Source of the DNA: a virus
Taxonomy: Duplodnaviria > Heunggongvirae > Uroviricota > Caudoviricetes
Direction: 5' to 3' (one strand)
Length of the DNA stretch: 42,580 bases
Virus record (IMG/VR): IMGVR_UViG_2917393062_000002
Coordinates: 1-42,580 of that record
Notes under the pieces: model-generated
Seen by the model: only the letters and a program-made list of their open reading frames with translations
The model's database searches: none
Told to the model about the DNA's origin: nothing
Shown here: piece by piece, positions 10,645-28,389 of the stretch
Position numbering within the stretch: position 1 is the first letter of the stretch
Layout of the letters: each line of letters starts with the position of its first letter
Position numbers and translations under genes: made by a program

Positions 10645-11037
10645 TTGTCAATAATAAAACTCCTCTTCAGGAGGTTGGAATTTTTGGAGTAATTATGTGG
10701 AAAACTACAGGTGAGAAAGTGATTGTTGCATATGTTAATGGTAATGCGAAATACTCACGTATCGAAATGAGCGGTCAACATGCTCGATTGATTCGTGAGT
10801 AACAGGCATTACAGCAGCCCTTCAGTGAGGGGCTGCGATAATGCAACACAGGAATAAAAACCGGCCAGGGAGAATCCGTTAAAGATCTGCCGGTGGCGAA
10901 AAAGTGCCAGGCGCTCAACCTAAGCTGATTCTCTGTTGAATACAATAATTTTATTTACATCTATGTGAATGCGTAGGGCTTCTGTGATGCACGTCATGTT
11001 AACGATGTATGGATATGCGAATCATTCCCATTTTCAC

Positions 11038-11110
11038 GGGTCCTTCCTGAATTTTGGAACACCGAGGGGATGCGGACACGCAGAAATCGCCAAATTTTTG
11101 CATTTTCATC
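11038..11110 (+). repeat. Copy A of a conserved ~50-90 bp element (GGGTCCTTCCTGAAnnnTGGAACACCGAGGGGATGCGGACnCGCAnAAA...TTTTTGCATTTTCAT)
   Basis: Near-identical to copies at 19365 and 21835; lies about 120-165 bp upstream of helper terS. Confidence 0.6.
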
Positions 11111-11203
11111 GTTCATCACCACCACTGTAATTTATTGATAATGAAAGGTTAAAAAAAAGTTGGTGTCGAAAGTGCTCGTTTTTTGTTCATCACTGGAGGG
11201 TAA

Positions 11204-11704
11204 GTGGATAAGGAACTGAAACACCTTGTTCTTAATGTCAGCCAGTTGGCTGCGCTGTCTGGTGTGCACCGACAGACTGTCGCATCAAGAATCAAAAATG
11301 TCCGAACAGCGGGTGGACATGAAAGTAATCTCAAGCTGTATAAACTTACCGATATTCTGGCAGAGCTAATGAAATTGCCACCGCCTGTCGCTGAAGGGGA
11401 GATGGATCCCCATGACCGAAAAGCCTGGTATCAGTCAGAACGTGAACGCCTGAAATTCGAACAGGAGGTCGGAGAACTGATCCCTGCGTCTGATGTCGCT
11501 CGTGAATTTGCTGAAATGGCAAAGGCTATGGTGCAGGTTCTGGAAACTCTCCCCGATATTCTTGAACGCGATTGTGCTCTTGAGCCTTCGGCTGTCATGC
11601 GGGTGCAAAGCATTATTGATGATCTGCGTGACGAAATTGCACGACGGGTGGCAGATGACAGCAAACAGGAAGATGCAGAGGAGGAAAATCAGGAGGACGA
11701 ATAA
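11204..11704 (+). CDS. terS: Terminase small subunit (helper phage)
   Basis: GTG after GGAGGG; 166 aa; HTH-like N-terminus, acidic C-terminus; stop overlaps terL start; paralogue at 21994..22476. Confidence 0.65.
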   Translation: MDKELKHLVLNVSQLAALSGVHRQTVASRIKNVRTAGGHESNLKLYKLTDILAELMKLPPPVAEGEMDPHDRKAWYQSERERLKFEQEVGELIPASDVAREFAEMAKAMVQVLETLPDILERDCALEPSAVMRVQSIIDDLRDEIARRVADDSKQEDAEEENQEDE

Positions 11705-12699
11705 TGCCTGTGCAGGCGACCGCCAGATCGTTGAAACTGGATACAGGCCAGTTAATTAAAGCGCCGCGCAGAATGCCTGTTGCCGAAGCGGTACAAAAAT
11801 TTATGCGAGTCCCTACATCTGGTGGCAACTCTGTTCCGTGGGATCCGATGGTTGCACCGTATGTGATTGAACCCATGAACTGCCTGTCGTCCCGTGAGTT
11901 TGATGCGGTTGTTTTTGTTGGTCCTGCCCGTACGGGCAAGACTAACGGCCTGATTGATGGCTGGGTGGTTTATAACATTGTCTGCGATCCGTCTGACTTT
12001 TTGCTGGTGCAGATGACGCAGGATAAGGCGCAGGAGCACTCCAAAAAGCGCCTGGCAAGAACATTTCGTTGCAGCCCGGAGGTCAGAAAACGCCTCAGCC
12101 CACGCCGTAACGATAACAACGTTCATGACAAATATTTTCTGTCGGGCAGCTTTCTGAAAATCGGCTGGCCTTCCATCAATGTCATGTCATCCTCTGATTT
12201 TAAATGTGTGGCGCTGACTGATTACGACCGATTTCCTGAAGATATCGATGGCGAAGGTGATGGTTTCTCCCTGGCTTCAAAACGTACCACAACATTTATG
12301 TCAGCTGGTATGACGCTGGTGGAGAGTTCTCCCGGGCGTGAAATCACAAACAGCAAGTGGCGCAGAACGTCACCGCATGAAGCCCCGCCCACCACGGGGA
12401 TCCTTTCTCTGTATAACCGTGGCGATCGTCGTCGCTGGTACTGGCCTTGTCCGGATTGTGGTGATTATTTCCAGCCATCGATGGAGGCTATGACGGGATA
12501 TCGTGACAATCCTGATCCTGTAAAAGCCAGTGAAGCGGCTCATATATTGTGTCCGCATTGTGGCAGTCAAATCACTGCAGATATGAAACGTGAACTGAAT
12601 GGTCGCGGTGTCTGGTTGCGTGAAGGTGAGCAGATTGACAGAGAAGGGAATGTTACCGGAACGCCACGTCATTCAAGGATAGCCAGCTTCTGGATGTAG
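11704..12699 (+). CDS. terL: Terminase large subunit (GpA-like), N-terminal ATPase part, interrupted by island insertion
   Basis: 331 aa with P-loop VGPARTGKT and CPDCG...CPHCG Zn-finger-like motif; ends ...IASFWM then TAG supplied by inserted DNA; continues in frame at 22703 after removing the insertion. Confidence 0.8.
   Translation: MPVQATARSLKLDTGQLIKAPRRMPVAEAVQKFMRVPTSGGNSVPWDPMVAPYVIEPMNCLSSREFDAVVFVGPARTGKTNGLIDGWVVYNIVCDPSDFLLVQMTQDKAQEHSKKRLARTFRCSPEVRKRLSPRRNDNNVHDKYFLSGSFLKIGWPSINVMSSSDFKCVALTDYDRFPEDIDGEGDGFSLASKRTTTFMSAGMTLVESSPGREITNSKWRRTSPHEAPPTTGILSLYNRGDRRRWYWPCPDCGDYFQPSMEAMTGYRDNPDPVKASEAAHILCPHCGSQITADMKRELNGRGVWLREGEQIDREGNVTGTPRHSRIASFWM
12688..12699 (+). other. Left junction (attL-like) with core CTGGATG
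   Basis: TTCTGGATG|TAGGGTACATTTC: terL sequence changes to AT-rich island DNA; same 7-bp core at 22696..22702. Confidence 0.5.
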
Positions 12700-12860: not shown

Positions 12861-14099
12861 ATGTCGGTAAAGCCATTAACCGTGACTGAAGTTAAGGGGA
12901 TGAAACCACGTGAAAAGGACTATGCTGTTTATGATGGGTTCGGTTTATTGCTGAATGTGAGTAAAGCTGGTGGGAAAGTGTGGCGTTTTCGTTATAGCCA
13001 TCCGATAACGAAGAAACGGCAGACATACACGATAGGGCGTTTTCCTGAATTCTCACTCGCGGAAGCACGGGAAGTACGTGATGAACTTCGGCGAATGATT
13101 GCACGTGGAGTTGATCCAGTGACAGAGAAGAAAAATCGTAAAATTGAGATGGCACTAAAAAATCTACAGACATTTGAATCTGTTGCTAATGCATGGGTTG
13201 CCTTTAAAAAGGGAGCAGAATTGCGGAAGCCTACGTTAAATAACATCGAATATGAAGTATATAAATATCTTGTTCCTTTCTTTGGTAAATATAGTATAGA
13301 TAAGATTACAGCGCCATTAGCAATTAAGATACTGGATGCAGTATCTGATAAAAATGCGTTGCAAAAAAAATTAATATCAAGATTAAATGAAATTATGAAT
13401 TATGCCGTAAATTGTGGTGCGTTAAAAATAAATCCATTGCTTAAAATAAAGACTGCATTCGCTGGAAAGAAAAATAAATCATTGGCTGCGTTACCTATAG
13501 AAAGATTACCTGAATTTCTGAGTTGGTGGGATAGTGTGCCTCATAACTACCAAATAGCGCATAATGCACTTTTATTCCAGGTATTGACCATGGTCAGGCC
13601 GGGAGAGGCGATCCAGGCAGAGTGGTCAGAGATAGATTTTGATGCTGGTCTGTGGGTTATTCCTGAGCATAAAATGAAATGCCATCGTGAACATGTTGTG
13701 CCCCTGTCATCACAGGCCATTAGCATCCTGAGAACAATGCAGGAAATAAAAAGAGGGCGTTATGTATTCTATTCATCCAGAACCAAAGACGCGCCTATGG
13801 GGAGGAAAACTATAAATACTGCGATTACCTCCAGTAAGTTCAAAGGGATTGTAACGTTACATGGTTTTCGTTCGATGTGGAGTACGCTTTTAAATGAGGA
13901 AGGATTTAACCCCGATGTAATTGAGGCTGCATTAGCACATAAAAGTGGTGATAAAATAAGAGATATTTATAATAGAACTACTTATTTAGAACAACGCAAA
14001 ATTATGATGCAATGGGTAGGCGATTTTTTTGATGAGGCGAGAAAAGGGGTAATTAATAGATCCTGTGGTAAGAAAGGTTTGAGAATAGTAAATGGTTGA
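12861..14099 (+). CDS. int: Tyrosine integrase, P4-type
   Basis: 412 aa; P4-type N-terminal arm-binding signature (GGKVWRFRYSHP...FPEFSLAEAREVRDELRRMIARGVDP); C-terminal catalytic region with HGFRS and conserved Tyr; about 160 bp from attL. Confidence 0.85.
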   Translation: MSVKPLTVTEVKGMKPREKDYAVYDGFGLLLNVSKAGGKVWRFRYSHPITKKRQTYTIGRFPEFSLAEAREVRDELRRMIARGVDPVTEKKNRKIEMALKNLQTFESVANAWVAFKKGAELRKPTLNNIEYEVYKYLVPFFGKYSIDKITAPLAIKILDAVSDKNALQKKLISRLNEIMNYAVNCGALKINPLLKIKTAFAGKKNKSLAALPIERLPEFLSWWDSVPHNYQIAHNALLFQVLTMVRPGEAIQAEWSEIDFDAGLWVIPEHKMKCHREHVVPLSSQAISILRTMQEIKRGRYVFYSSRTKDAPMGRKTINTAITSSKFKGIVTLHGFRSMWSTLLNEEGFNPDVIEAALAHKSGDKIRDIYNRTTYLEQRKIMMQWVGDFFDEARKGVINRSCGKKGLRIVNG

Positions 14100-14111
14100 G
14101 GAGTTCAGCAA

Positions 14112-14315
14112 ATGAATACCAATGAAGATATTTTATTTACTAAAGACGTAATGAAAATTTTGCGCTATGGGGCAATGAGCGCATTCATTAATTTCTGGAA
14201 AGATGAAAGCAATGGTTTTCCTCAACCGTTCAGAATTGGGCGGCGGCATACCTGGCACCGTAGAGATGTAGAGGCATGGTTAGATAAACAACGAGAACAG
14301 GCCAATCCCCACTAA
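14112..14315 (+). CDS. AlpA-like small DNA-binding protein (excisionase/regulator candidate)
   Basis: 67 aa; AlpA-like pattern (FPQPFRIGRRHTWHRRDVEAWL); immediately downstream of int. Confidence 0.5.
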   Translation: MNTNEDILFTKDVMKILRYGAMSAFINFWKDESNGFPQPFRIGRRHTWHRRDVEAWLDKQREQANPH

Positions 14316-14374
14316 TAATATCTTTCATACCCCGCACACAATGCGGGGTTTTTTGTATGTGAGGTAAAAAAACG

Positions 14375-14956
14375 ATGAATAAAAATATTGCCGTGACGGG
14401 CAAGGGTGACGCTCGTCCAGTGAAAAATTTCTGCAATATTCGTGATCTAATCGTTCTGCGCTTTGATGGCGTGGATGTTCGCGTGGTGTATCTGAATGGC
14501 GATCCGTGGTTTGTTGCAAAGGATGTTTGTGAAGCTCTGGAAATAAGCAACTCACGCGATGCTCTAAAAGCTCTGGATGTGGATGAGAAGAATACCGTCG
14601 CTTTAAGCTACGGTATTCGCGGAAATCCAAATCATAGCGTCGTTTCTGAATCTGGTTTTTACAAGCTGATCGCCAGAAGTCGCAAAGCTGTTACTCCTGG
14701 CACGTTCGCCCATCGTTTCAGTAATTGGGTATTCAGAAATGTGATACCGGGTATCAGAAAAACGGGGGCTTATGGTATCCCGTGGGGCGCATTACAGGAT
14801 TTTTCCCGCCGTAAAGAGCAATATCAGATAAGTGCCAGCGAGAAGGGGAGGGAGCTACAGGCATGTAAGCGCAAAAAGCGTGAGCTGGAGGAAGAAGAAA
14901 AAAGGCTGATACGTGAATATCAGCCTGAGTTTTACTTTGACAACTGCATTCAGTGA
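14375..14956 (+). CDS. Bro-N domain protein (antirepressor-like)
   Basis: 193 aa; N-terminal Bro-N-like motifs (WFVAKDVCEALEI, SESGFYKLIARSRK, FSNWVFRNVIPGIRKTGAYG). Confidence 0.6.
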   Translation: MNKNIAVTGKGDARPVKNFCNIRDLIVLRFDGVDVRVVYLNGDPWFVAKDVCEALEISNSRDALKALDVDEKNTVALSYGIRGNPNHSVVSESGFYKLIARSRKAVTPGTFAHRFSNWVFRNVIPGIRKTGAYGIPWGALQDFSRRKEQYQISASEKGRELQACKRKKRELEEEEKRLIREYQPEFYFDNCIQ

Positions 14957-15049
14957 CAAAACAAAGGCGACCGGGGGCGGTCGCCAATGGGAAAACACTA
15001 AACATAAGCACGGGGATGATAGCCGCTATCAGGCTGGTGGGCAATGCAA

Positions 15050-15238
15050 TCAGTCTTGTTCAGTTCGTTGCCATACCTGCAATGAGCGCGTTTCCCTGTA
15101 CTCTTTAAGGAATTGCTCAAGGGCAAAAGCACATGGCGCGAATCTTTCTGATTCATGCTCTATCTTTCTGCGCCGTCTTTTCCGTGCCGGTGATAATGTT
15201 TTGGTCAATTCTTTATCGGTCATTGTGTTGTCCTGCAT
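15050..15238 (-). CDS. Hypothetical basic protein, possibly co-transcribed with the RHH-like gene
   Basis: 62-aa minus-strand ORF downstream of the RHH-like gene; weak RBS. Confidence 0.25.
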   Translation of the reverse strand: MQDNTMTDKELTKTLSPARKRRRRKIEHESERFAPCAFALEQFLKEYRETRSLQVWQRTEQD

Positions 15239-15280
15239 AGCAATGCGCCGTAATACCTTACACCACGGCGCTGGTGATGG

Positions 15281-15460
15281 TTATTCCTGCTCTTTGGCCT
15301 TGCGACGCTGGCGGTATTCAACTTCTCGCTTTAATGCTGCTGTTACAAACTGCCCTGTACTTTCACCAGGCATTTTTACCGCCTCAACATTGTTCATAAC
15401 TTCATGCGGAACCCTTGCCGCAACTGTTTGTGATTTTGCGTTTACTGCTTTTGTCGCCAT
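15281..15460 (-). CDS. Small ribbon-helix-helix-like DNA-binding protein (candidate island repressor), 59 aa
   Basis: Minus-strand ATG at 15460 preceded by AAGGGG; MATKAVNAKSQTVAARVPHEVMNNVEAVKMPGESTGQFVTAALKREVEYRQRRKAKEQE (beta-strand then two helices); divergent from operator repeats; below ORF-track cut-off. Confidence 0.4.
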   Translation of the reverse strand: MATKAVNAKSQTVAARVPHEVMNNVEAVKMPGESTGQFVTAALKREVEYRQRRKAKEQE

Positions 15461-15510
15461 GTTGTGTACCCCTTACAAAAAACAAATGCAGTATGCAGGA
15501 AAAAAAATAA

Positions 15511-15562
15511 GTGTTCAACACTTGACGTGTTTAACACCAGGGCTTAAATTGGTGTTCAACAC
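15511..15562 (+). promoter_or_regulatory. Three palindromic operator-like sites GTGTT(C/T)AACAC overlapping a candidate rightward promoter
   Basis: GTGTTCAACAC at 15511 and 15552, GTGTTTAACAC at 15527; TTGACG at 15522 and TTAAAT about 17 bp downstream; between divergent RHH gene and rightward operon. Confidence 0.5.
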
Positions 15563-15658
15563 CTTGTTGATGCAAGGTGCAGAAACGACGAAACCCGGCA
15601 GTGCGCTAACACTAACCGGGCTTCTAACCACCAACGATAGAAAGCGTATCGAGGTAGC

Positions 15659-15866
15659 TATGTTAAATCATACCACACACCCGCAAGGGCGGGACTCGCA
15701 CAACCTGAATAAATACATCTGGCGTTTTATCGCCCTGAGCACGGCACAACCGCGCGTGATTACCATTGAGGCCACCAGCGAACAGGAAGCACGCCAGCAA
15801 TCTCCTGATGGCTGTGTGATGGTATTCGCCGCCCGTATTCGCCAGGGGGTGCACCATGTGCAATAA
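15659..15866 (+). CDS. Hypothetical protein (first gene of rightward island operon)
   Basis: ATG after GAGG; 68 aa C-terminal part of a 317-aa track ORF whose upstream part looks non-coding. Confidence 0.35.
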
Positions 15867-16311: not shown

Positions 16312-16611
16312 ATGAAACAGAAAAATTCTGGCTTTACTGCCAGCGGCCTCTCTCGGCCTGAAATCCGCCCCGGCGATATTTTCAAAGATAAATACGGCGG
16401 CACTGTAACGATTAAAAGCGTGGCGGGACGGTGTGTTACTTACCGCCGTGATGGGTACGGCTATGACTGCGTGATGCCTGTTTATCAGTTCCGGCGTGAT
16501 TTTTCTCTGGTACAGAACGCAACACGCGGTAAGCCCACCAGCAGGGAAAAAGCACGGGAAAATATTAAGAAAATAAAAAGCATGCTCAGCGCATCCAGAG
16601 GTAAAAAATGA
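16312..16611 (+). CDS. Hypothetical basic protein
   Basis: 99 aa; GGAG upstream; stop overlaps primase start. Confidence 0.4.
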   Translation: MKQKNSGFTASGLSRPEIRPGDIFKDKYGGTVTIKSVAGRCVTYRRDGYGYDCVMPVYQFRRDFSLVQNATRGKPTSREKARENIKKIKSMLSASRGKK

Positions 16612-18356
16612 AACTGGCACCGAACGTAAAAAAACAGCCTCGCGGAATAAAAAACAAAGACACAGAGGTAATTATTTTCGCGGGTAGTGATGCCTGGTCG
16701 CATGCGCAACAGTGGCAGGAGAAGGACGGTCCCGCATCCGGCGATAATGTGCCGCCTGTGTGGCTTGGGCCAAATCAGCTTGCCGAACTTGATGCGCTGA
16801 AAATTGTTCCGGATGGAAAAAAACGCGTAAGGCTGTACCAGGCCGGAGAACTGGATTTAGTGGAGACCAAAAAGATTGGTCAGAAGCTGGCGGCGGCAGA
16901 TATTCAGGATGCGAATTTTTACCCTGAAGGAATGCACGGTCAGAAGTGTGAAAACTGGCGGCGCTATTTGAATGCTGAGCGTGAAAATATTGCCGCAGGG
17001 CTTACCATGCCGGAGCAGAAAAATACGCAACTGGCACAGATGGCAGACAGTGAGCGCGCACAGATGCTTGCTGGTCGGTTTGATGGCGTATGTGTGCATC
17101 CGGAAAGTGAAATCGTTCACGTCTGGCGCGGCGGGGTATGGTGTCCGGTCAGCACAATGGAACTGAGTCGCGAAATGGTGGCGATTTATTCAGAACATAA
17201 GGCCACTTTCAGCAAGCGCGTAATCAGTAACGCCGTTGAAGCGTTAAAAGTTATTGCCGAACCAATGGGCGAGCCGTCCGGTGATTTGCTGCCGTTCGCC
17301 AATGGTGCGCTTGACCTGAAAACGGGGGAATTTTCCCCGCACTCGCCGGAGAACTGGATCACCACGCACAACGGTATTGAATACACGCCGCCAGTACCAG
17401 GGGAGAATATCCGCGACAACGCGCCAAACTTTCATAAATGGCTTGATCACGCTGCCGGAAAAGATCCGGGCAAGATGATGCGTATATGCGCCGCGCTATA
17501 CATGATTATGGCGAACCGGTACGACTGGCAGATGTTTATTGAGGCCACCGGAGACGGCGGGAGCGGCAAGAGCACTTTCACGCACATAGCCAGCCTTCTG
17601 GCAGGGAAACAGAACACAGTAAGCGCTGAGATGACATCGCTTGATGATGCTGGTGGGCGTGCGCAGGTTGTCGGGAGTCGGCTTATTGTCCTGGCAGACC
17701 AGCCGAAATATACAGGCGAAGGCACGGGCATCAAGAAAATCACGGGCGGCGACCCCGTGGAAATTAACCCGAAATATGAAAAGCGTTTCACAGCGGTAAT
17801 CAGGGCGGTTGTGCTGGCAACCAATAATAACCCGATGATATTCACCGAACGGGCCGGAGGCGTGGCACGTCGTCGCGTGATTTTCCGTTTCGACAATATC
17901 GTCAACGAGGCCGAAAAAGACAGGGAACTACCGGAAAAGATTGCGGCTGAAATCCCCGTCATTATCCGCCGATTACTGGCGAACTTTGCAGACCCTGAAA
18001 AGGCGCGGGCTTTACTACTGGAACAGCGTGACGGTGATGAAGCACTGGCGATAAAGCAGCAAACGGATCCGGTTATTGAGTTTTGCCAGTTCCTGAATTT
18101 TCTGGAGGAAGCACGCGGCCTGATGATGGGCGGCGGTGGCGATTCCGTGAAGTACACGACCAGAAACAGCCTTTACCGCGTCTATCTGGCGTTTATGGCA
18201 TACGCAGGCAGAACCAAACCACTAAACGTAAATGACTTTGGCAAGGCCATGAAGCCAGCCGCAAAAGCTTACGGACATGAATATATTACGCGAAAAATTA
18301 ATGGGGTGACGCAGACTAACGCAATAACAACCGACGATTGCGACGCGTTTTTATAA
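16608..18356 (+). CDS. Primase/helicase-type replication protein (P4 alpha / D5-like NTPase domain)
   Basis: 582 aa; Walker A GDGGSGKST, Walker B-like LIVLAD; immediately followed by an iteron array. Confidence 0.75.
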   Translation: MKLAPNVKKQPRGIKNKDTEVIIFAGSDAWSHAQQWQEKDGPASGDNVPPVWLGPNQLAELDALKIVPDGKKRVRLYQAGELDLVETKKIGQKLAAADIQDANFYPEGMHGQKCENWRRYLNAERENIAAGLTMPEQKNTQLAQMADSERAQMLAGRFDGVCVHPESEIVHVWRGGVWCPVSTMELSREMVAIYSEHKATFSKRVISNAVEALKVIAEPMGEPSGDLLPFANGALDLKTGEFSPHSPENWITTHNGIEYTPPVPGENIRDNAPNFHKWLDHAAGKDPGKMMRICAALYMIMANRYDWQMFIEATGDGGSGKSTFTHIASLLAGKQNTVSAEMTSLDDAGGRAQVVGSRLIVLADQPKYTGEGTGIKKITGGDPVEINPKYEKRFTAVIRAVVLATNNNPMIFTERAGGVARRRVIFRFDNIVNEAEKDRELPEKIAAEIPVIIRRLLANFADPEKARALLLEQRDGDEALAIKQQTDPVIEFCQFLNFLEEARGLMMGGGGDSVKYTTRNSLYRVYLAFMAYAGRTKPLNVNDFGKAMKPAAKAYGHEYITRKINGVTQTNAITTDDCDAFL

Positions 18357-18370
18357 TTTTTGGCAATTGC

Positions 18371-18590
18371 TGTCTACCTTGTCTACCTGATTACATAAAA
18401 GTTGTTTTAATTCAGTGTATTAATTTAGGTAGACAGCTTTTTTTTACTGTCTACAAGCTATCTACACTGTCTACCTGTTTTTGTAGCCAGCCGGAGGGAT
18501 GAGTAGACATCAGGTAGATAGTGGTTTTTTACTGTCTACATCCATTAAACCCGCGTCATTACTGGCCTGAGCATCTATCAGGTAGACAGA
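18371..18590 (+). repeat. Iteron array / candidate island replication origin
   Basis: At least 10 copies of TGTCTAC(C/A) or its complement GGTAGACA in both orientations, interspersed with A/T tracts, directly downstream of the primase/helicase gene. Confidence 0.75.
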
Positions 18591-18645
18591 GTAGACAAGG
18601 TGGGGGTAGGCCTAAAACTTTTTAAACGAGGGGGTAAAAATAAAA

Positions 18646-18903
18646 ATGCACACATCAGAAAAATTTAACAATCAGAAGAAATCACATAACCGCGCCATTG
18701 ACCTTACAGAGCACTGGCTGAGGGTGGCGATAAAAATCATCGACCGCAACGCGGGAGAAGGATACGCGAAAGCGCATCCCGAACTGATAAGCGCATTCAT
18801 GAACACAGCGGCGGCAAACTTTGCCACGCTGACAGAACGGGAGATTGCGGAAGCGGAACAGGTGACAACTATCAACGTTAAAACCGGAGAACAGACAGCA
18901 TGA
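18646..18903 (+). CDS. Hypothetical protein
   Basis: 85 aa; GAGGGGG upstream; stop overlaps SSB start. Confidence 0.4.
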   Translation: MHTSEKFNNQKKSHNRAIDLTEHWLRVAIKIIDRNAGEGYAKAHPELISAFMNTAAANFATLTEREIAEAEQVTTINVKTGEQTA

Positions 18904-19322
18904 CAGCACAGATAGCGGCTTACGGGCGGCTGGTGGCTGACCCGCAGTTAAAGACCACCAGCAAGGGAACACAAATGGCGATGGCGAGTATGGCTGTTCC
19001 CCTGCCGTGCAGCCAGGCCGATGACGGAACGGCGACAATGTGGTTATCCGTCCTGGCGTTTTGCAGACAGGCCGACGCACTGGCAAAACACCGCAAAGGC
19101 GAACTGGTGAGCGTGGCGGGTAACATGCAGGTAAGCCAGTGGACAGGCCAGAACGGCGAAACGCGGCAGGGCTGGCAGGTTATCGCAGACAGCGTAATCA
19201 GTGCGCGAACGGCGCGACCGGGCGGCAAAAAAGGCCAGCAGGGCCAGGCTACTGACGCACTGAACAGGGCAAAACAACAGGCGGGAAATGATGATCCGTA
19301 CGGGGATAACATACCGTTTTAA
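18900..19322 (+). CDS. ssb: Single-stranded DNA-binding protein (SSB-like)
   Basis: 140 aa; OB-fold-like core (LSVLAFCRQADALAKHRKGELVSVAGNMQVSQWTGQNGETRQGWQVIADSV), Gly/Gln linker and acidic tail ending DNIPF like SSB DDDIPF. Confidence 0.7.
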   Translation: MTAQIAAYGRLVADPQLKTTSKGTQMAMASMAVPLPCSQADDGTATMWLSVLAFCRQADALAKHRKGELVSVAGNMQVSQWTGQNGETRQGWQVIADSVISARTARPGGKKGQQGQATDALNRAKQQAGNDDPYGDNIPF

Positions 19323-19338
19323 GCAACGAGTGACAGAA

Positions 19339-19362
19339 GCCGGGATTTTTCCCGGTTTTTTT
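19339..19362 (+). terminator. Rho-independent terminator
   Basis: CCGGG-atttt-CCCGG + TTTTTTT after ssb. Confidence 0.65.
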
Positions 19363-19364
19363 AT

Positions 19365-19450
19365 GGGTCCTTCCTGAAAAATGGAACACCGAGGGGATGC
19401 GGACGCGCAGAAAACGGCTGGTTTTTGCATTTTCATGGTGGCGGCAGCAT
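19365..19450 (+). repeat. Copy B of the conserved element
   Basis: TTTTTTTATGGGTCCTTCCTGAAAAATGGAACACCGAGGGGATGCGGACGCGCAGAAAA...GCAGCAT; identical to copy C over about 55 bp including spacing from the upstream terminator. Confidence 0.6.
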
Positions 19451-19730: not shown

Positions 19731-19934
19731 GTGAACGAAAAGAAAGCTGTATCGGTTTATCTCGACAATGAAACGGCGCTTGCCCTGTACCGTTTGCGCG
19801 AAGATATTCGCAAGAAAAATGCAGAAACGGGAATGGATCTTCCCACGCCAACAGTCGGCTGGCTTGCCCGTTCATTGTTGCGTCAAAGCCTGGGAATTAA
19901 GGCAGACAAAAAAGATTTGCCTCATGAGGGGTAA
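19731..19934 (+). CDS. Hypothetical small protein
   Basis: GTG 7 nt after GAGG; 67 aa; immediately upstream of island capsid gene. Confidence 0.35.
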   Translation: MNEKKAVSVYLDNETALALYRLREDIRKKNAETGMDLPTPTVGWLARSLLRQSLGIKADKKDLPHEG

Positions 19935-19936
19935 GG

Positions 19937-21781
19937 TTGATGGAAATTTCATTGTATGAGCCAATCGAAGGCGTAACCGCAAGACAGTTCCGCGATTCAC
20001 TTATGGCTGCAAAAGGCCCGGTTACGGTTGCCATAAACAGCGGTGGCGGAAATGTAACTGACGGCATGGCGATGTTTAACGCCCTGAGAACGTACAAAGG
20101 CCACACGGTCGCAAGAATCGACGGTATCGCCGCATCAATGGCTACCATTGTTGCGCTCGGTGCCCGGCGTGTCGTGATGGCTGATAACGGCTGGTGGATG
20201 ATCCATAACCCGTGGGGCGTTTTTGTTGGTGAATCGGAAGATCTCCGCAAAAAAGCCGACATGATGGAAAAAATCGGCAAGGCAATGCTTGATACCTACG
20301 TTGCCAAAACCGGATTACCGGAATCAGAAATCAAAGCCATGATGGATGCTGAAACATGGCTGACGGCTGAGGAAGCGAAAGAAAAAGGATTTATTGATGA
20401 AATTTATCCGGCAGAGGGACAGGCATTAGCCATGGCCCCTGGTTGCGGATCACTGGTAGAGAAATTTACCAGAACGCCGGAAAGCATCATCGCATCGATG
20501 AAGAAAGGCGACACGGGATCAGCAAACGAAAGAGAGAAGCGAAAAAAAGAAGCCGACGTTTTGTTTGCTTACTGGAAGAATTCTTCGTATGAGTGGTTGC
20601 CAGGAATTGTTGAAGAATTTATCAGCGGTTCCATCACTGCCGAAGAAGCACGTAAAAAACACTTAGAAAAACTGGCGGAAGAGACAACGCCGTGCGCAGG
20701 ACCAGGAGCAATGAACATGTATGCAGGTAACGGTAATATTGTTGGGGATTCAGTAAAAGCGGCGCTTATGGCACGCAGTGGACTGGCGGATGTGGAAAAA
20801 GATAACCGCTATAACGGTTATTCATTGCGGGAACTGGCGCGCGCTTCTCTGGTGGATCGTGGGGTAAGCGGCATTCCAGGTAATCCGCTGGGCATGGTTG
20901 GAATGGCGTTTACTCACAGCAGTAGTGATTTTGGCGGCATTCTTGCGGACGTGGCGCATAAATCATTACTGAAAGGCTGGGAAGATTCGCCGGAGACGTT
21001 CCACGCCTGGACGAAAAAAGGCACTCTGACAGATTTTAAGGTTGCCCATCGTGTTGGTATGGATGGTTTTAAATCTCTGCGAAAAGTTTTGCCAGGCAGC
21101 GAATATAAATACGCGTCCACGTCCGATCGCAGCGAGCCAATTGCACTGGCAACTTATGGCGAACTGTTCAGCATAGATCGCCAGGCAATCATCAATGACG
21201 ACATGAGCGCACTGACTTCAATCCCCCAGCAAATGGGGGCAGCAGCAAGCCGCACAGTCGGGGATCTGGTTTATGCCGTTCTCGTGGCCAATCAGAAGAT
21301 GGGCGATAAAAACCCGCTCTTTGATGCGAAACACAGCAATCTGATTAACAGCGAACTTGATATTCCAGGCCTGAGTGCAGCCCGTAAAGCTATGCGTATG
21401 CAAAAAAATAATGCTGGTGCTGTACTGAATATTCCGCCTCGTTTCCTGTTAGTTCCGGTAGAACTGGAAGACAGAGCAACCCAGCTTATTCGTTCTACGT
21501 CGCTACCAGACGCGCAGAACAGCGGTGTGTTTAACCCATACAATGATGCACTGACAGTAATCACAGAGGCGCGACTTGATGCCGACAGCGTGAAATCCTG
21601 GTATCTGCTTGCGGGTCAGGGAAGTGATACAATTGAAGTCGCTTATCTCGATGGTATTGATACCCCGTACCTGGAACAGCAGCAGGGCTTTACGGTTGAC
21701 GGCGTAACTTTCAAAGTGCGCATTGATGCCGGAGTTTCTCCTCTGGACTGGCGCGGGATGGTTAAGTCATCAGGTGGTTAA
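19937..21781 (+). CDS. Island prohead protease (ClpP-like)-linker-major capsid protein fusion
   Basis: 614 aa; N-terminal ClpP/S14-like domain; C-terminal ~330 aa about 70% identical by eye to the helper capsid domain (GNGNIVGDS...IEVAYLDGIDTPYLEQQQGFTVDG). Confidence 0.8.
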   Translation: MMEISLYEPIEGVTARQFRDSLMAAKGPVTVAINSGGGNVTDGMAMFNALRTYKGHTVARIDGIAASMATIVALGARRVVMADNGWWMIHNPWGVFVGESEDLRKKADMMEKIGKAMLDTYVAKTGLPESEIKAMMDAETWLTAEEAKEKGFIDEIYPAEGQALAMAPGCGSLVEKFTRTPESIIASMKKGDTGSANEREKRKKEADVLFAYWKNSSYEWLPGIVEEFISGSITAEEARKKHLEKLAEETTPCAGPGAMNMYAGNGNIVGDSVKAALMARSGLADVEKDNRYNGYSLRELARASLVDRGVSGIPGNPLGMVGMAFTHSSSDFGGILADVAHKSLLKGWEDSPETFHAWTKKGTLTDFKVAHRVGMDGFKSLRKVLPGSEYKYASTSDRSEPIALATYGELFSIDRQAIINDDMSALTSIPQQMGAAASRTVGDLVYAVLVANQKMGDKNPLFDAKHSNLINSELDIPGLSAARKAMRMQKNNAGAVLNIPPRFLLVPVELEDRATQLIRSTSLPDAQNSGVFNPYNDALTVITEARLDADSVKSWYLLAGQGSDTIEVAYLDGIDTPYLEQQQGFTVDGVTFKVRIDAGVSPLDWRGMVKSSGG

Positions 21782-21807
21782 CAGATAATCAGGCATGTTA
21801 TGTTTTT

Positions 21808-21833
21808 TTGCGGCCTTCGGGCCGCTTTTTTTA
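21808..21833 (+). terminator. Rho-independent terminator
   Basis: GCGGCC-ttcg-GGCCGC flanked by T-runs. Confidence 0.65.
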
Positions 21834-21834
21834 T

Positions 21835-21920
21835 GGGTCCTTCCTGAAAAATGGAACACCGAGGGGATGCGGACGCGCATAAATCGAGAGATTTTTGATA
21901 TTTTATGCGTGCAGCAGCAT
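21835..21920 (+). repeat. Copy C of the conserved element
   Basis: Same core as A and B; about 110-160 bp upstream of island terS. Confidence 0.6.
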
Positions 21921-21993
21921 AAGTTTAATGCTTTGATTTTTAACATTATTGATTTGTTTTGTTGAAAAAGCGACCGTGCAGTGAGGTGGTAAA

Positions 21994-22476
21994 GTGGAAC
22001 TGAGCAAAATGCAGGTTAATGTCTCACAACTGGCAGACCTGGTAGGCATGAATCGAAATCTTGTTTCACGCCGTTTGCGTGAGCTGGAGCTTGTTGGCGG
22101 GAATGGTGAGAATCTTAAACTGTATGAACTCGGTCCGGCACTTCAGGCACTACTGACCCCATCAATGAAAGAAAATGGTGAAATGTCACCACAGGATCGG
22201 AAAGCCTGGTATCAGTCAGAAAATGAAAGGCTGAAATTTGAAGCAGCTTCACGTGAATTACTCCCTGTCGAAGAGGTGGCCCGTGAATATTCATCTCTGG
22301 CTAAAGCCGTAGTCATGGTGCTGGAAACGTTGCCGGATATTCTTGAGCGCGATTGCGCTCTCCAGCCTTCCGCAGTCATACGAGTGCAACGCATTATTGA
22401 TGATCTACGTGATGAAATGGCGAGAAAAATTGCAGAAAGCGATTCAGATAATGGCTGGCCTGCATGTACAAGATGA
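21994..22476 (+). CDS. terS: Island terminase small subunit paralogue
   Basis: 160 aa; C-terminal half almost identical to helper TerS (VLETLPDILERDCAL.PSAV.RVQ.IIDDLRDE), N-terminal HTH region divergent. Confidence 0.65.
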   Translation: MELSKMQVNVSQLADLVGMNRNLVSRRLRELELVGGNGENLKLYELGPALQALLTPSMKENGEMSPQDRKAWYQSENERLKFEAASRELLPVEEVAREYSSLAKAVVMVLETLPDILERDCALQPSAVIRVQRIIDDLRDEMARKIAESDSDNGWPACTR

Positions 22477-22692: not shown

Positions 22693-22702
22693 TTCCTGGA
22701 TG
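22693..22702 (+). other. Right junction (attR-like) with core CTGGATG
   Basis: AT-rich island DNA ...TTCTTCCTGGATG|GAAGGGCCGG resumes terL coding sequence. Confidence 0.5.
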
Positions 22703-23827
22703 GAAGGGCCGGCTGCTGCGTATCAGACCTGGGCGCAACTGGTTTACAAACTACTGACTGCTGAGCAGGAATATGAAGCCACAGGCAGTGAGGAAACACT
22801 GAAGGCGGTGATTAACACCGACTGGGGATTACCTTATTTGCCTCGTTCCGCAATGGAGCTGCGTAGTGCGGATGTTCTGATGCAGCGGGCCGAGGACTAC
22901 GGTAAGCGCCTGGTACCGCCGAAAGTACGTTTTCTTATTGCGGCTGTGGACGTGCAGGGCGGGAAGAACCGACGGTTTGTGGTGCAGATTATTGGCTATG
23001 GCGAGGACGGCGAACGCTGGCTGGTGGACCGTTATAACATCCGACAGTCATTGCGCTGCGATGAAAATGGCGAAGCATTACCTGTGCATCCCGGGGCTTA
23101 TCCTGAAGACTGGCAGTTGCTGGTCACCGATGTACTGGAGAAAACGTATCCGCTCCAGTCCGATCCGGCCCGCAGAATGCCTGTACTGGCAATGGCGGTG
23201 GACAGTGGTGGTGAGGACGGGGTGACGGATAACGCCTATAAATTCTGGCGAAAATGTCGTCAGGATGGACTGGGGCGACGGGTTTTTCTGGTAAAGGGAG
23301 ACAGCACGAAACGCCAGAAAATTATCACCATCACACACCCGGATAATACCGGGCGAAGCGATCGTCGTGCTGATGCTCAGGGAAAGGTGCCGGTATATCT
23401 CCTGCAGACAGACCTGCTGAAAGATCAACTAAGCAATAACCTGCAACGTGAAATGCCCGGACCGGGCTACATTCATTTTCCTGACTGGCTCGGGGAGTGG
23501 TTTTATGAAGAGTTGACCTATGAGGAACGCGGTGCTGACGGGAAATGGCGCAAGCCGGGAAAAGGGAATAACGAAGCGTTTGACCTTTTTTGCTATGCCC
23601 ATGCTGTCGCCATTCTGCGTGGCTATGAAAAAATCCGTGACTGGAGCAATCCTCCCCAGTGGGCAAGGGGGCAGGATGCTGATGCGGGGGCTTCAGCAGA
23701 CAGACGTTCTTCCGGCACAGTGGACAAGAAAAACGTTGCCGGAAGAGATGAGCGGCAAAAAGCAGCGTCGCCGGAAGCGTTATCCGGAAACTGGTTATCA
23801 CTACCCCGAAACGGAGGATGGTTGTGA
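22700..23827 (+). CDS. terL: Terminase large subunit, C-terminal (nuclease) part
   Basis: 375 aa GpA-like C-terminal domain; in frame with 11704..12696 once 12697..22702 is removed. Confidence 0.8.
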   Translation: MEGPAAAYQTWAQLVYKLLTAEQEYEATGSEETLKAVINTDWGLPYLPRSAMELRSADVLMQRAEDYGKRLVPPKVRFLIAAVDVQGGKNRRFVVQIIGYGEDGERWLVDRYNIRQSLRCDENGEALPVHPGAYPEDWQLLVTDVLEKTYPLQSDPARRMPVLAMAVDSGGEDGVTDNAYKFWRKCRQDGLGRRVFLVKGDSTKRQKIITITHPDNTGRSDRRADAQGKVPVYLLQTDLLKDQLSNNLQREMPGPGYIHFPDWLGEWFYEELTYEERGADGKWRKPGKGNNEAFDLFCYAHAVAILRGYEKIRDWSNPPQWARGQDADAGASADRRSSGTVDKKNVAGRDERQKAASPEALSGNWLSLPRNGGWL

Positions 23828-24051: not shown

Positions 24052-25563
24052 ATGGGTTTTTTTGATAAAGCACTTGGCGCAATTGCGCCAGGGTGGGCGG
24101 TTTCGCGCGCCAGAAACAAAATGCTGCTGAGAGCTTATGAGGCGGCGCAGCCTTCACGCCTGAATAAAGCCCGGCGCGAGAGTCGTTCTGCCGAGACTGC
24201 GGTTTTTTCTGCCTGTACCTCGTTAAGGGAGCAGGCCAGGGCGCTGGATGAAGATCACGATATCGTGATTGGTCTGCTGGATAAGCTGGAAGAGCGGGTT
24301 ATTGGCGCGCAGGGGATCCAGGTTGAACCACAACCACTGAGAAGCGATGGCACCCTGCATGAATCGCTGGCAGAGCAGATCTCGGCATTGTGGTCTGAAT
24401 GGTCTGTTCGCCCTGAGGTCACGGGGATGTTCACCCGTCCGGAGGCCGAACGGATGGCATTGCGATCTGCTTTGCGTGATGGCGAGATGTTCGTACAACT
24501 GGTGCGTGGTCCTGTCGCCGGTCTGAATCATTCCACTGTGGTGCCATTATCACTGGAACTTCTCGAAGCAGATTTTGTTCCGGTCAGTCTGAACACGAAC
24601 GCGGGTCAGCAAGTCCGTCAGGGCATTATTCTTAACAACTGGGGGCGGCCTGTAGGGTATCGGGTTTATAAATACCATCCTGCAAATATGCGTGGATTCA
24701 GCGCCGATCTCAAAACTGTTCACGCAGACAGCATGCTTCATCTGGCGATGCGGAAACGGCTTCATCAGGTGAGAGGTGTCAGCCTGTTACATGGTGTGAT
24801 TCGCCGGATTGCTGATCTGAAAGATTACGAAGAATCAGAGCGTGTGGCTGCCCGTATTGCTGCCGCGCTGGGTTTCTACATTAAGCGTGGTGATGCCGCC
24901 AGCTTTCCGACGGATAACGACTGGACACCCACAGAACAAAAACCCCGGTATTTTGATATTTCACCGGGCATGATTTTTGACGAACTGGCCCCCGGTGAAG
25001 ATCTGGGGATGGTGGAGTCGAATCGTCCGAATGTTCATCTTTATGAATTCCGGAACGGGCAGTTGCGTGCTGTGGCTGCCGGAACCCGTGGCAGTTATTC
25101 CAGTATTGCCCGTGACTATAACGGCTCCTACAGTTCGCAGCGTCAGGAGCTGGTGGAAGGTTACGAAGGCTACGGGGTTTTACAGCAGTGGTTTGTCGGT
25201 CAGTACAGCCGCCCGGTGTACCGGGCATGGCTGGAGCAGGCGATACCTTTTCTTGAAATTTCTCCTGATGTGGATATGTCCACACTTTTCAATGCCACTT
25301 ATCTTGGCCCGGTGATGCCGTGGATTGATCCGGTGAAGGAGGCTGCAGCATGGCGGGCCATTCTTCGCGGTGGTGCCGGGACGGAGGCTGAGTGGATACG
25401 TGCCCGTGGGCAGTCACCGCAGGAGGTCAAACGTCAGCGACTGCGTGAAACTGAATTTAACCGGGAAAACGGGCTGGTGTTCGATTCTGACGCCGCTAAC
25501 GATAAAGGAGCGATCCCTGATGCAGCAAATGATAAACCCGCGTCTTCGCGGGACGATGATTAA
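24052..25563 (+). CDS. Portal protein (lambda B-like)
   Basis: 503 aa; size and position between W and protease/capsid; acidic C-terminus. Confidence 0.75.
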   Translation: MGFFDKALGAIAPGWAVSRARNKMLLRAYEAAQPSRLNKARRESRSAETAVFSACTSLREQARALDEDHDIVIGLLDKLEERVIGAQGIQVEPQPLRSDGTLHESLAEQISALWSEWSVRPEVTGMFTRPEAERMALRSALRDGEMFVQLVRGPVAGLNHSTVVPLSLELLEADFVPVSLNTNAGQQVRQGIILNNWGRPVGYRVYKYHPANMRGFSADLKTVHADSMLHLAMRKRLHQVRGVSLLHGVIRRIADLKDYEESERVAARIAAALGFYIKRGDAASFPTDNDWTPTEQKPRYFDISPGMIFDELAPGEDLGMVESNRPNVHLYEFRNGQLRAVAAGTRGSYSSIARDYNGSYSSQRQELVEGYEGYGVLQQWFVGQYSRPVYRAWLEQAIPFLEISPDVDMSTLFNATYLGPVMPWIDPVKEAAAWRAILRGGAGTEAEWIRARGQSPQEVKRQRLRETEFNRENGLVFDSDAANDKGAIPDAANDKPASSRDDD

Positions 25564-27610
25564 TCCCCGCGCCAGCCTTGCGGGGGTGGATGCCGCTAAT
25601 GGTCAGTGCTGGTATGAAATCCGTGCACAGACTGCCGGGCGGGTGGAAATTTACCTCTATGACGTGATTGGCGGATGGGGCATCACCGCGCAGCAGTTTA
25701 TTTCTGACTGTAAAAATGCGGGAGTGTTTGAGGCCAGCGCCATTGATCTGCATATCCACAGCCCGGGCGGTGATGTGATGCAGGGCTTTGCCATCTTTAA
25801 CACGCTGTCACGCCTGAAAGCGAAGGTGGATATCTGGGTGGACGGTGTTGCTGCCAGCATGGCCTCCATGATTGTCTGCCTGCCCGGCGCCACCGTGCAT
25901 ATGCCTGAAAACGCCTGGCTGATGGTGCACAAGCCGTGGGGCGGGATCGCCGGTGATTCTGATGATATGCGTGATTATGCCGACTGGCTGGATCGCAATG
26001 AGGCGCTGATGCTGTCAGCCTACATGAATAAAACCGGACTCGGGCAGGATGAGCTGGAAGCCATGCTGAAAGCAGAAACCTGGCTGAACGGTGCTGAAGC
26101 CGTGGAAAAAGGCTTCGCTGATACGCTTGAACCTGAATTACAGGCTGCGGCCTGTGTGAACCAAAATAAACTGAAGGATTATCATAACATGCCAAAACAG
26201 CTTAACGCGCTTTTTGCTCCACGTGCAGAAACGACGAACGGACAGCCGCAGGAGACGAAAGCAACCCCGCAAAATGCGCAACAGATCGCTGCTCAGCAGA
26301 CACCATCAACCGGAAATGTGGATATCAGCGCAATTGCTTCGCAGGTTCAGCAACAACTGATGGCAGCCAATGCGGAACGTGTGCAGGCGGTAACCGCAGT
26401 TTTTGCCTCTTTCCCGTCTTATGCCGCACTGAAAGCGGAGTGTCTGAACGACATGACCTGTACGGAAGCACAGGCCCGTGAAAAACTGTTGCAGGCGCTG
26501 GCAGCCGGAACGACACCAAGTGCAGGCCCGGGCGCTGTTCATATTCATGCCGGGAACGGTAATCTGGTCGGCGATTCCATTCGTGCGGCTGTGATGGCAC
26601 GCGCCGGATATGCCGAAGCAGAAAAAGATAATGCTTATAACGGTTTTACTCTGCGCGAGCTGGCGCGTGCTTCGCTGGTTGATCGCGGTATCGGTATCTC
26701 CGGTCATTCCGCACCGATGGCGATGGTTGGGCTGGCATTTACTCACAGCAGCAGCGATTTCGGCAATATCCTGATGGATGTGGCTCATAAAGCTGCGTTG
26801 CAGGGATGGGATGATGCCAGCGAAAATTTTGACAAATGGACCCGCAAGGGAACGCTGACTGATTTTAAAACCGCGCATCGTGTCGGGCTGGAAACTTTCC
26901 CTACGCTGCGAAAAGTATTGCCGGGGGCTGAATATAAATATGTGACCCTGAAAGATCGTGGCGAACCGATTGCACTGGCGACTTATGGCGAATTGTTCAG
27001 CATTGATCGCCAGACCATCATCAATGATGACCTGGATATGCTGACCCGTATTCCGATGGCAATGGGGGCGGCAGCGCGTACTACCGTGGGTGATCTGGTC
27101 TGGGCCGTGCTGACCAGCAATCCGAAAATGTCGGATGGTAAACCGCTGTTCCATGCAGATCATGGCAACCTGGTGACTGCCGATTTGTCTATTGAGGGGC
27201 TGGATTCCGGGCGTAAAGCCATGCTGCTCCAGAAATCGGGTGACCGTCGCCTGAACATTCGTCCTGCTTTTATGTTGACGCCTGTTGCCATTGAGTCGCG
27301 TGCCAATCAGTTGATTAAGTCTGCCAGCGTGCCTGGTGCAGATGCGAACAGCGGCATTATTAACCCGATTCAGAATTTTGCCACGGTTCTGTCAGAGGCC
27401 CGTCTTGATGACAGCAGCCCGACGGATTATTACCTGGTGGCAGCGCAGGGGCGTGACACGATTGAAGTGGCTTACCTCGACGGTATTGATACGCCGTATC
27501 TGGAGCAGCAACAGGGCTTTACGGTTGATGGTGCAGCATTCAAGGTGCGCATTGATGCCGGAGTGGCACCGCTTGACTGGCGTGGCATGGTCAAAGTGAA
27601 AAAACAATAA
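25520..27610 (+). CDS. Helper prohead protease (ClpP-like)-scaffold-like linker-major capsid protein fusion
   Basis: ATG at 25520 after AAGGAG (track ORF begins 25370); ClpP-like N-terminal domain, about 130-aa Q/A-rich linker, HK97-fold-like C-terminal capsid domain. Confidence 0.8.
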   Translation: MQQMINPRLRGTMINPRASLAGVDAANGQCWYEIRAQTAGRVEIYLYDVIGGWGITAQQFISDCKNAGVFEASAIDLHIHSPGGDVMQGFAIFNTLSRLKAKVDIWVDGVAASMASMIVCLPGATVHMPENAWLMVHKPWGGIAGDSDDMRDYADWLDRNEALMLSAYMNKTGLGQDELEAMLKAETWLNGAEAVEKGFADTLEPELQAAACVNQNKLKDYHNMPKQLNALFAPRAETTNGQPQETKATPQNAQQIAAQQTPSTGNVDISAIASQVQQQLMAANAERVQAVTAVFASFPSYAALKAECLNDMTCTEAQAREKLLQALAAGTTPSAGPGAVHIHAGNGNLVGDSIRAAVMARAGYAEAEKDNAYNGFTLRELARASLVDRGIGISGHSAPMAMVGLAFTHSSSDFGNILMDVAHKAALQGWDDASENFDKWTRKGTLTDFKTAHRVGLETFPTLRKVLPGAEYKYVTLKDRGEPIALATYGELFSIDRQTIINDDLDMLTRIPMAMGAAARTTVGDLVWAVLTSNPKMSDGKPLFHADHGNLVTADLSIEGLDSGRKAMLLQKSGDRRLNIRPAFMLTPVAIESRANQLIKSASVPGADANSGIINPIQNFATVLSEARLDDSSPTDYYLVAAQGRDTIEVAYLDGIDTPYLEQQQGFTVDGAAFKVRIDAGVAPLDWRGMVKVKKQ

Positions 27611-27682
27611 ATAACCGCCGGACAGGGCGGTTTTTTTATGGCTGAAGCGGCGCACTTTGTGCCGCATTTACCGGAGAAAAAA

Positions 27683-28012
27683 ATGTCAAAAAATTTTGTT
27701 CAGGACGGAAAAAACGTCGACTGGCTGAATGGGACCGGAAAGGCGGTGTCATCTGGCGATCTGGTTGTTCAGGATAATCTTGTTGGTGTTGCTCACGCTG
27801 ATATTCCGGACGGGGATGTGGGTATTCTGCATACGACGGGAGTTTTCTCTTTGCCTAAAGAGGCAGAGGCGCTGACGCAAGGCAAGCTGGTGTATTTCAA
27901 AGCGGATACGGCAACACTGACTGCAACGAAATCAGGTAATACGCTGGTGGGAACAGTATGGGCATCGGCTGAAGCCGGAGATGCCTGTGTTTGTGTGCGT
28001 CTGGGGTACTGA
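27683..28012 (+). CDS. Putative head decoration / small head protein
   Basis: ATG after GGAG; 109 aa; directly downstream of capsid gene. Confidence 0.4.
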   Translation: MSKNFVQDGKNVDWLNGTGKAVSSGDLVVQDNLVGVAHADIPDGDVGILHTTGVFSLPKEAEALTQGKLVYFKADTATLTATKSGNTLVGTVWASAEAGDACVCVRLGY

Positions 28013-28368: not shown

Positions 28369-28389
28369 ACTTCATAAGGAGATATCGCA

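Follow-up and report, generated by a model that had tools for sequence, protein, structure and literature searches.

A satellite island within a prophage terminase gene encodes its own short-linker protease-capsid fusion

The fusion gene and its counterpart in the helper prophage

We examined a 42,580-nucleotide stretch of tailed-virus DNA (IMG/VR record IMGVR_UViG_2917393062_000002, positions 1 to 42,580; hereafter the window). The window is a lambdoid prophage with co-oriented genes, all on the + strand, and its large terminase gene, terL, is interrupted by an island. At 19937-21781 the island carries a gene for a protein of 613 amino acids (aa), in which a ClpP-like prohead protease, a linker and an HK97-like capsid domain are fused. 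A second gene of this kind, encoding 696 aa, lies at 25520-27610 in the prophage itself, which we refer to as the helper. The three-part architecture of both open reading frames (ORFs) had been proposed in a sequence-only reading of the window, and Pfam, the NCBIfam model NF045540 and BLASTP all agreed with it. The two genes comprise the following parts.

19940..20398, + strand: island protease domain, aa 1-153 (PF00574, E 2e-30)
20399..20683, + strand: island linker or scaffold-like segment, 95 aa, with five short helices predicted by AlphaFold2
20684..21781, + strand: island HK97-type major capsid domain, 365 aa and stop codon (PF25209, E 4e-55)
25520..27610, + strand: helper protease-scaffold-capsid fusion; 696 aa if read from the ATG at 25520, with the open frame reaching back to 25370

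Both proteins contained CLP_protease (PF00574) and Phage_capsid_4 (PF25209) and were aligned by BLASTP with 52% identity over 660 columns (E = 0). Against NF045540, "ClpP-like prohead protease/major capsid protein fusion" (scaf_prot_MCP1; curated cut-off 475 bits), the helper protein scored 938.6 bits and the island protein 744.5 bits, the latter matching the profile as two separate stretches. The identity between the two copies was 45% in the protease, 23% in the linker and 67% in the capsid domain. The near-identical C-terminus that had been noticed earlier was found again (43 of the last 50 residues), but it is conserved across the whole family and is not special to this pair, and gene conversion was for this reason ruled out as its origin.

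The island protein begins directly at MEISLYE and does not have the approx. 41-aa N-terminal leader of the phage copies. This leader makes up about half (41 aa) of the 83-aa gap in total length, a figure that hinges on the start codon of the helper gene. The N-terminal domain of the island model superposed on solved ClpP structures with a TM score of ~0.8, and the catalytic Ser66 and His89 were invariant in an alignment of 64 sequences. The search for a solved structure of the capsid domain or the linker gave only weak sequence matches to Mu GpT-type capsid proteins (E 0.003), and Foldseek returned mostly ClpP.

The linker is 95 aa long in the island and 129 aa in the helper, a difference of ~34 aa and not the 80-100 aa estimated at first. 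Nor are the two linkers unrelated in sequence, as had been stated: their C-terminal ~55 aa are homologous, could be aligned in all copies examined and form three predicted helices in both AlphaFold models (pLDDT 78 for the island and 73 for the helper). In the island model helices were placed at residues 169-174, 181-189, 194-208, 220-229 and 234-246, followed by disorder at 247-264. In the helper model a pair of short helices comes first; a P/Q/A-rich disordered region (234-267) follows, then helices at 269-294, 299-310 and 316-328 and again disorder at 331-347. As modelled, the island linker thus lacks the flexible P/Q/A-rich insert and approx. half of the first long helix. The variable segment was helical in the models of both linkers, in line with the earlier description of it as scaffold-like. 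By analogy with lambda C/Nu3 and the HK97 delta domain, its position between the protease and the capsid N-arm would fit a covalently attached scaffold.

Boundaries and gene content of the island

The island comprises 10,006 bp between two CTGGATG cores and lies inside the GpA-type terL of the helper, at the boundary of the ATPase and nuclease domains. The stop codon of the 5' terL ORF arises at the insertion point. When the flanks were joined in silico at CTGGATG an intact TerL of 705 aa was obtained, and the rebuilt junction, SRIASFWMEGPAAAYQT, was identical to the intact TerL of another genome. The features of the island and of the interrupted gene are listed here from left to right.

11704..12699, + strand: 5' part of helper terL with the GpA ATPase domain, interrupted by the island (PF05876, E 5e-80)
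12690..12696, no strand: attL core CTGGATG, the only 7-bp block common to both junctions
12861..14099, + strand: island tyrosine integrase (Arm-DNA-bind_3 and Phage_integrase; NF007246)
14112..14315, + strand: candidate small helix-turn-helix (HTH) regulator or excisionase at the AlpA position, 67 aa (phrog_66 "excisionase and transcriptional regulator", E 1e-6)
14375..15866, + strand: Bro zone with a Bro-N protein (PF02498, E 2e-18) and a protein of 317 aa whose C-terminus resembles a repressor (phrog_6196, transcriptional repressor, E 6e-53)
16312..19322, + strand: replication zone with DUF4222, a D5_N/DUF5906 primase, an 85-aa ORF and a single-stranded DNA-binding protein (SSB) (Pfam; phrog_1231)
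19352..19450, + strand: island cos-like copy 1, with a hairpin and T-run 5' of it; closely similar on the downstream side to cosB of phage cdtI
19683..19934, + strand: small ORF immediately 5' of the fusion gene (67-83 aa 5' of lineage-A satellite fusions, see below)
21810..21832, + strand: hairpin resembling an intrinsic terminator, GCGGCC-TTCG-GGCCGC and T7, directly after the fusion gene
21822..21920, + strand: island cos-like copy 2, directly upstream of the island terS, the usual satellite position
21994..22476, + strand: island small terminase, DUF1441 (PF07278, E 3e-39; phrog_141)
22696..22702, no strand: attR core CTGGATG, the 7-bp block common to both junctions
22700..23827, + strand: 3' part of helper terL with the GpA nuclease domain (PF20454, E 4e-86)

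The primase at 16608-18356 combines D5_N, DUF5906 and Pox_D5, and the SSB gene lies at 18900-19322. The homologue of the 14112-14315 ORF in an E. coli island embedded in the same gene (L001) is annotated as an HTH regulator. No Pfam match, including to the Phage_AlpA model, was obtained for this ORF, and an assignment to AlpA is weak. Pfam and PHROG scans detected no portal, terL, connector, tail or lysis genes between the att cores, in agreement with what had been claimed for portal, terL and tail genes.

The island thus has what characterises Gram-negative phage-inducible chromosomal islands (PICIs): an inward integrase at one end, a small regulator, a primase, a capsid gene with terS, and a size of ~10 kb. 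It also has the layout of a PICI that is embedded in its helper (HE-PICI), in that terL is split into rejoinable GpA_ATPase and GpA_nuclease ORFs and the genes are co-oriented. Judged by its gene content, the island is a PICI-type satellite that would depend on the prophage for portal, TerL, cement protein, connectors and tail, and the earlier proposal of a satellite in need of a helper is upheld by this gene content and by the size of 10,006 bp.

A contiguous junction of terL and integrase was found in 87 of 5,426 complete E. coli genomes, including the Shiga toxin-producing serotypes O157:H7, O121 and O45:H2. In E. coli with the embedded island the terL halves are annotated by PGAP as terL pseudogenes, and E. 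coli B1-56 has the same terL-embedded layout. The integrase of the window island and its counterpart in the E. coli terL-embedded island shared 96% identity. Against integrases of PICIs integrated at fis, and of HE-PICIs whose site is in portal (L004) or CLP_protease (L035, L050), the identity was only 22-28%. The doubled attP motif of HE-PICIs (TGTATTGC; tgTGTATTGCantgTGTATTGCa, two copies) was absent from the whole window with up to 3 mismatches allowed. By eye, a doubled motif TTATCGC-ttg-TTATCGA was seen at about 12812-12832, ~125 bp inside attL. It may be an arm-type site for the island integrase; at about this position a doubled motif of another sequence is present in the published HE-PICI clade.

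Linker length in satellite and phage copies

We classed 88 copies of the fusion gene (from the window, L001-L004 and 78 genome loci) by their neighbouring genes. In the 69 copies with a portal gene directly upstream, i.e. phage copies, the linker was 103-136 aa long (median 119). Five helper or contig-edge copies, which could not be classed by their neighbours and were assigned to phages by hand, had linkers of 114-119 aa. The satellite copies classed by neighbours (n = 12) had linkers of 86-96 aa (median 91), with the exception of L004, and two provisional ones, from Halomonas and Halopseudomonas, had 79 and 91 aa. Overall, the linker measured 79-96 aa in 13 of 14 satellite copies, two of them provisional, vs 103-136 aa in 74 of 74 phage copies. 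We concluded that satellite copies in general, and not the window island alone, have a systematically shorter linker.

In neighbour-joining trees the capsid domain grouped nearly all satellite copies and the protease did not. The weight of the linker pattern is limited, because the satellite copies are related.

At three loci, in Kluyvera, Rahnella and Citrobacter (L050 ~14443, L035 ~14082 and L059 ~13613), a short-linker satellite copy was seen ~4 kb upstream of a helper fusion with a truncated protease. This arrangement appears to be the published HE-PICI configuration C:CLP_protease:110.

Origin of the island fusion and selection on it

A database search gave a clade of proteins of 602-616 aa with 57-98% identity to the island fusion. 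Those members that could be placed belonged to PICIs integrated at fis, in Serratia and on a metagenome contig (L002, L003), and to a chromosomal E. coli PICI (L086). The right part of the island (18696-22478, comprising the 85-aa ORF, SSB, cos, small ORF, fusion, cos and terS) was 97.3% identical in DNA to this chromosomal E. coli PICI, which has a different integrase and replicase. The left part with the integration and Bro genes (11231-15926) was 86.6% identical to the E. coli terL-embedded island, whose fusion is of a different lineage. Since the left part and the right 3.8 kb match different PICIs, we concluded that the island is a mosaic and that the late module moves between PICIs. A megablast search of complete E. 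coli genomes with the island gene gave no match; a protein of 98% identity exists in draft E. coli assemblies.

The satellite copies formed three lineages, each nearest to other satellite copies. In lineage A, which includes the window island, the protease was 43-47% identical to the phage copies sampled (maximum 47%). On these comparisons the island fusion belongs to a long-standing satellite lineage.

Two homologous genes in the same orientation and 3.7 kb apart could suggest a decaying prophage fragment, or a recent and functionless duplication of the helper head gene. The data already contradict this explanation, which we consider barely credible. The DNA identity between the island and helper genes is only ~67%, with the nearest relatives all in satellites, and both a recent duplication and a capture from the helper were ruled out since the late module is 97% identical to that of the chromosomal E. 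coli PICI. For the same reason the module was not copied from the helper of this window, and to call the gene paralogous to that of the helper, as the sequence-only reading did, is misleading. The ORF is also intact, and the ratio of nonsynonymous to synonymous substitution rates (dN/dS) came to 0.08-0.10 in the protease and 0.05-0.18 in the capsid domain, indicating purifying selection. Together with the invariant catalytic residues this answers the question of a degenerate copy, which had been raised as a test, in favour of a maintained gene. The linker was the fastest-evolving part (dN 0.43-0.88). Lastly, the PICI gene order has been kept from Serratia to Escherichia, and in satellites the late module has the conserved order small ORF, fusion, cos, terS.

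Cos-like sites and signals around the fusion gene

The sequence-only reading had not included the island terS and two cos-like sites. The island TerS is 60% identical to the helper TerS by BLASTP; its N-terminal part has diverged, whereas conservation is high in the C-terminal part. The helper counterparts are as follows.

11025..11123, + strand: helper cos core, upstream of the helper terS; the conserved core of ~60 bp occurs in three copies in all
11204..11704, + strand: helper small terminase, DUF1441 (PF07278, E 4e-46)

The end/start junction of the phage cdtI genome record was aligned to the helper cos, where it falls between CACCGAG and GGGATGCGGAC. The two island copies flank the fusion gene, 2,470 bp apart, each preceded by a hairpin and T-run. 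By megablast, copy 1 matched the beginning of the genome records of Tritos and cdtI, and a copy equivalent in position to copy 2 was found in L002, L005 and L038. Other satellites have a cos-like copy between fusion and terS only; L001 has two, like the window island. All three copies in the window have the core in common; the sides presumed to bind TerS differ between them, and this may widen the range of helpers. The strong terminator-like hairpin right 3' of the fusion gene suggests that antitermination is needed.

All lineage-A satellite fusions have the small ORF conserved directly upstream, with 2-12 nt between its end and the start of the fusion. The ORF gave tblastn matches in L002-L005, and genes of 67-73 aa are called there in L002, L003, L004 and L085. 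It was rejected as a TerS or gpW remnant, having no TerS similarity and a weak match to phrog_3255, a PHROG without known function.

Capsid morphogenesis and capsid size

The fusion represents the canonical capsid-morphogenesis gene of PICIs. We propose that island TerS and cos retarget the helper TerL, and that the fusion builds shells which are likely smaller than those of the helper; we see about an even chance that this is correct. When the composite element is induced, Q-antiterminated late transcription of the helper would read into the island, and the island would excise at CTGGATG, by which terL would be restored. Island TerS, with its diverged DNA-binding end and conserved TerL-binding end, could then direct the helper TerL to the island cos. 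The island fusion protein would assemble on the helper portal, alone or mixed with the helper capsid protein, its helical segment working like lambda Nu3 or the HK97 delta domain. The protease would probably cut in the disordered segment after the helices (predicted at 247-264). The shells would take up island DNA and subsequently join helper connectors and tails. That they are most likely smaller is suggested by what satellite copies consistently lack relative to phage copies: a disordered tether of ~30 aa and one half of the first helix in the scaffold. By analogy, small-capsid formation is plausible, with published precedents both ways.

Several points weigh against smaller shells. The linker difference lies mostly in a tether of low complexity, which need not bear on capsid size. 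The capsid domains are equal in length (365 vs 366 aa), and four joined 10-kb units would likewise fit into a head of helper size. Among the satellite copies L004 is an exception, its linker being 124 aa long. The capsid domains of the satellites may share one ancestor, as their grouping in the tree suggests, and the short linker would then possibly be a single event. Finally, EcCICFT073, a satellite with a capsid gene of a different family, was found to package only phage-sized DNA despite this gene (PMC6092414).

The EcCICFT073 result and the equal length and 67% identity of the capsid domains speak for an alternative in which the fusion leaves capsid size unchanged. Helper-sized shells would then be filled with cos-to-cos multimers, and the gene would be kept for capsid supply or for compatibility with multiple helpers. 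Four units of 10.0 kb amount to 40 kb, ~87% of the 44-47 kb genomes of phages with the same head module (from record lengths), and the module is common to PICIs at different sites, presumably with different helpers. This alternative leaves the systematic shortening of the satellite linkers unexplained. Moreover, all PICIs with the fusion module among those examined are ~10 kb long, which a size limit set by packaging capacity would predict. We regard it as unlikely, although it deserves serious consideration. Assuming equal packing density and a helper head of ~46 kb, a single 10-kb unit would take up ~78% of the room in a T=3 shell, a T=4 shell would be filled by two units, and a helper head would be ~87% full with four. 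Genome sizes do not discriminate between the capsid models.

PICIs commonly interfere with their helpers via capsid assembly (PMC6092414, PMC6893505), and the lineage-A protease is strongly diverged from all phage copies (43-47% identity). The fusion could thus be mainly an interference factor, which poisons helper head assembly by co-assembly or wrong processing. Purifying selection on both protease and capsid domain across genera suggests instead that a complete capsid-building function was kept, and the fusion gene is always paired with cos and terS, i.e. with a packaging function. In EcCICFT073, deletion of the capsid gene did not relieve interference, for which the gene was dispensable (PMC6092414). 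We therefore consider a main role in interference improbable.

A more specific form of our proposal of a capsid-building fusion is that a single satellite gene, combining protease, scaffold and capsid, suffices for a satellite-specific small shell on the helper portal. The size would be set by the loss of the tether and half helix, and the second cos copy, with a cosB side of the cdtI type, would allow the use of more than one terminase type. We put this forward tentatively and hold it to be rather doubtful. If true, the module would stand midway between classical PICIs, by which helper capsids are remodelled, and capsid-forming PICIs (cf-PICIs), which encode a whole head module.

Comparison with known satellites and phages

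The helper-embedded configuration and a model of its cis-regulation have been published: Tommasini, Mageeney and Williams (2023, PMC10111431) described 491 HE-PICIs at 14 sites in cognates of lambda late genes, and reported the capsid gene as the commonest late gene in Gram-negative PICIs. An HE-PICI such as Eco567.11capE resembles the window island in its size (~10-11 kb), its position within a lambdoid late gene, its co-orientation and the head-gene homologue on board. In both, the target gene is disrupted, has no replacement sequence and is restored by excision, and integration, Bro, replication and late zones follow each other. The target of the window island is a GpA-type terL, whereas in the part of the survey considered here the gene-A sites are in Terminase_1. 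A GpA-type terL site was not found in the survey text or in the supplements examined.

In Gram-negative PICIs a "capsid morphogenesis" gene and terS are core components (Fillol-Salom 2018, PMC6092414; SatelliteFinder, PMC10085698). In PMC10085698 the capsid gene is presumed to modify the capsids that are hijacked, and small capsids are the default assumption of the field. The window island shares with these PICIs the integrase, regulator, primase, capsid gene, terS and ~10-kb size, and its late module is the same as in the fis PICIs L002 and L003 and the chromosomal E. coli PICI L086. The fis and chromosomal PICIs reside in chromosomal genes, whereas the window island is embedded in its presumed helper. 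The literature searched contained no experiments on the ClpP-capsid fusion family in satellites.

Precedents for a change in capsid size come from other satellites. In PMC6092414 and 10.1101/2022.09.08.507074, Ccm of SaPIbov5 is cited as shifting assembly towards small capsids. Going by the description given there, Ccm and the island fusion are alike in being HK97-type capsid homologues encoded by a cos-packaged island. SaPIbov5 has Gram-positive hosts, and its Ccm is described there only as a capsid-protein homologue, whereas the island fusion has protease, scaffold and capsid parts. Ccm is not known to contain a protease or scaffold part. PmCI172 forms small capsids, possibly dependent on its capsid homologue. 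The cf-PICI EcCIEDL933 resembles the window island in encoding its own capsid protein, protease and TerS, and in both cases the satellite capsid genes are in clades apart from the phage genes. The cf-PICI also encodes portal, TerL, HNH and head-tail connectors and takes only tails from the helper; the window island is without all of these genes. A 14.9-kb "phage" record, ON470618, was considered as a packaged satellite and rejected, being a partial phage genome.

The fusions of the NF045540 type in lambdoid phages (mEp460, cdtI, Tritos, Stx2 phages, Chris1) have the same three-part architecture as the island copy. The phage copies have a portal gene upstream, linkers of 103-136 aa and the P/Q/A-rich insert, whereas the island copy has the small ORF upstream, a linker of 95 aa and no leader.

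The small-capsid interpretation restates a standing hypothesis on a known class of satellite genes. What is added here is modest: the systematic difference in linker length between satellites and phages, and an embedding site and integrase type not found in the part of the published survey (PMC10111431) considered here. As the window shows, helper-embedding also occurs in a GpA-type terL, and the integrase used there differs from those of the small number of other embedded islands and fis islands that we compared. Capsid genes count among the core components of PICIs, but what they do in Gram-negative bacteria has only been assumed. As natural long-linker and short-linker versions share one cell, the fusion module offers a compact test of whether scaffold length sets capsid size.

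Further features of the helper prophage

The left part of the helper contains, in order, replication protein P, a DUF968/NinG-like protein, RusA, two tRNAs, a holin and a GH108 endolysin. The head module consists of DUF1441 terS, GpA-type terL, a lambda-family portal, the ClpP-capsid fusion, a cement protein and an FII-like attachment protein, and is followed by a contractile-type tail with sheath and tube according to Pfam. Two head genes have not been listed above.

24052..25563, + strand: helper lambda-family portal (PF05136, E 3e-88)
27638..28012, + strand: helper cement/decoration protein, for which the island has no counterpart (PF09956, E 4e-27)

The helper (27638-42088) pairs a lambda-type head module with a contractile tail, with the sheath gene at 30270-31772 and the tube gene at 31769-32275. 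An E. coli helper carrying the same type of embedded island has a lambda-like siphovirus tail instead. In the early region of the helper, just 5' of a gene with an ORF6N domain, matches to isrK (2695-2772) and to C4 antisense RNA (2796-2880) were found, both above the gathering score. This unit belongs to the helper and not to the island, and it resembles a P1/P4-type RNA immunity unit.

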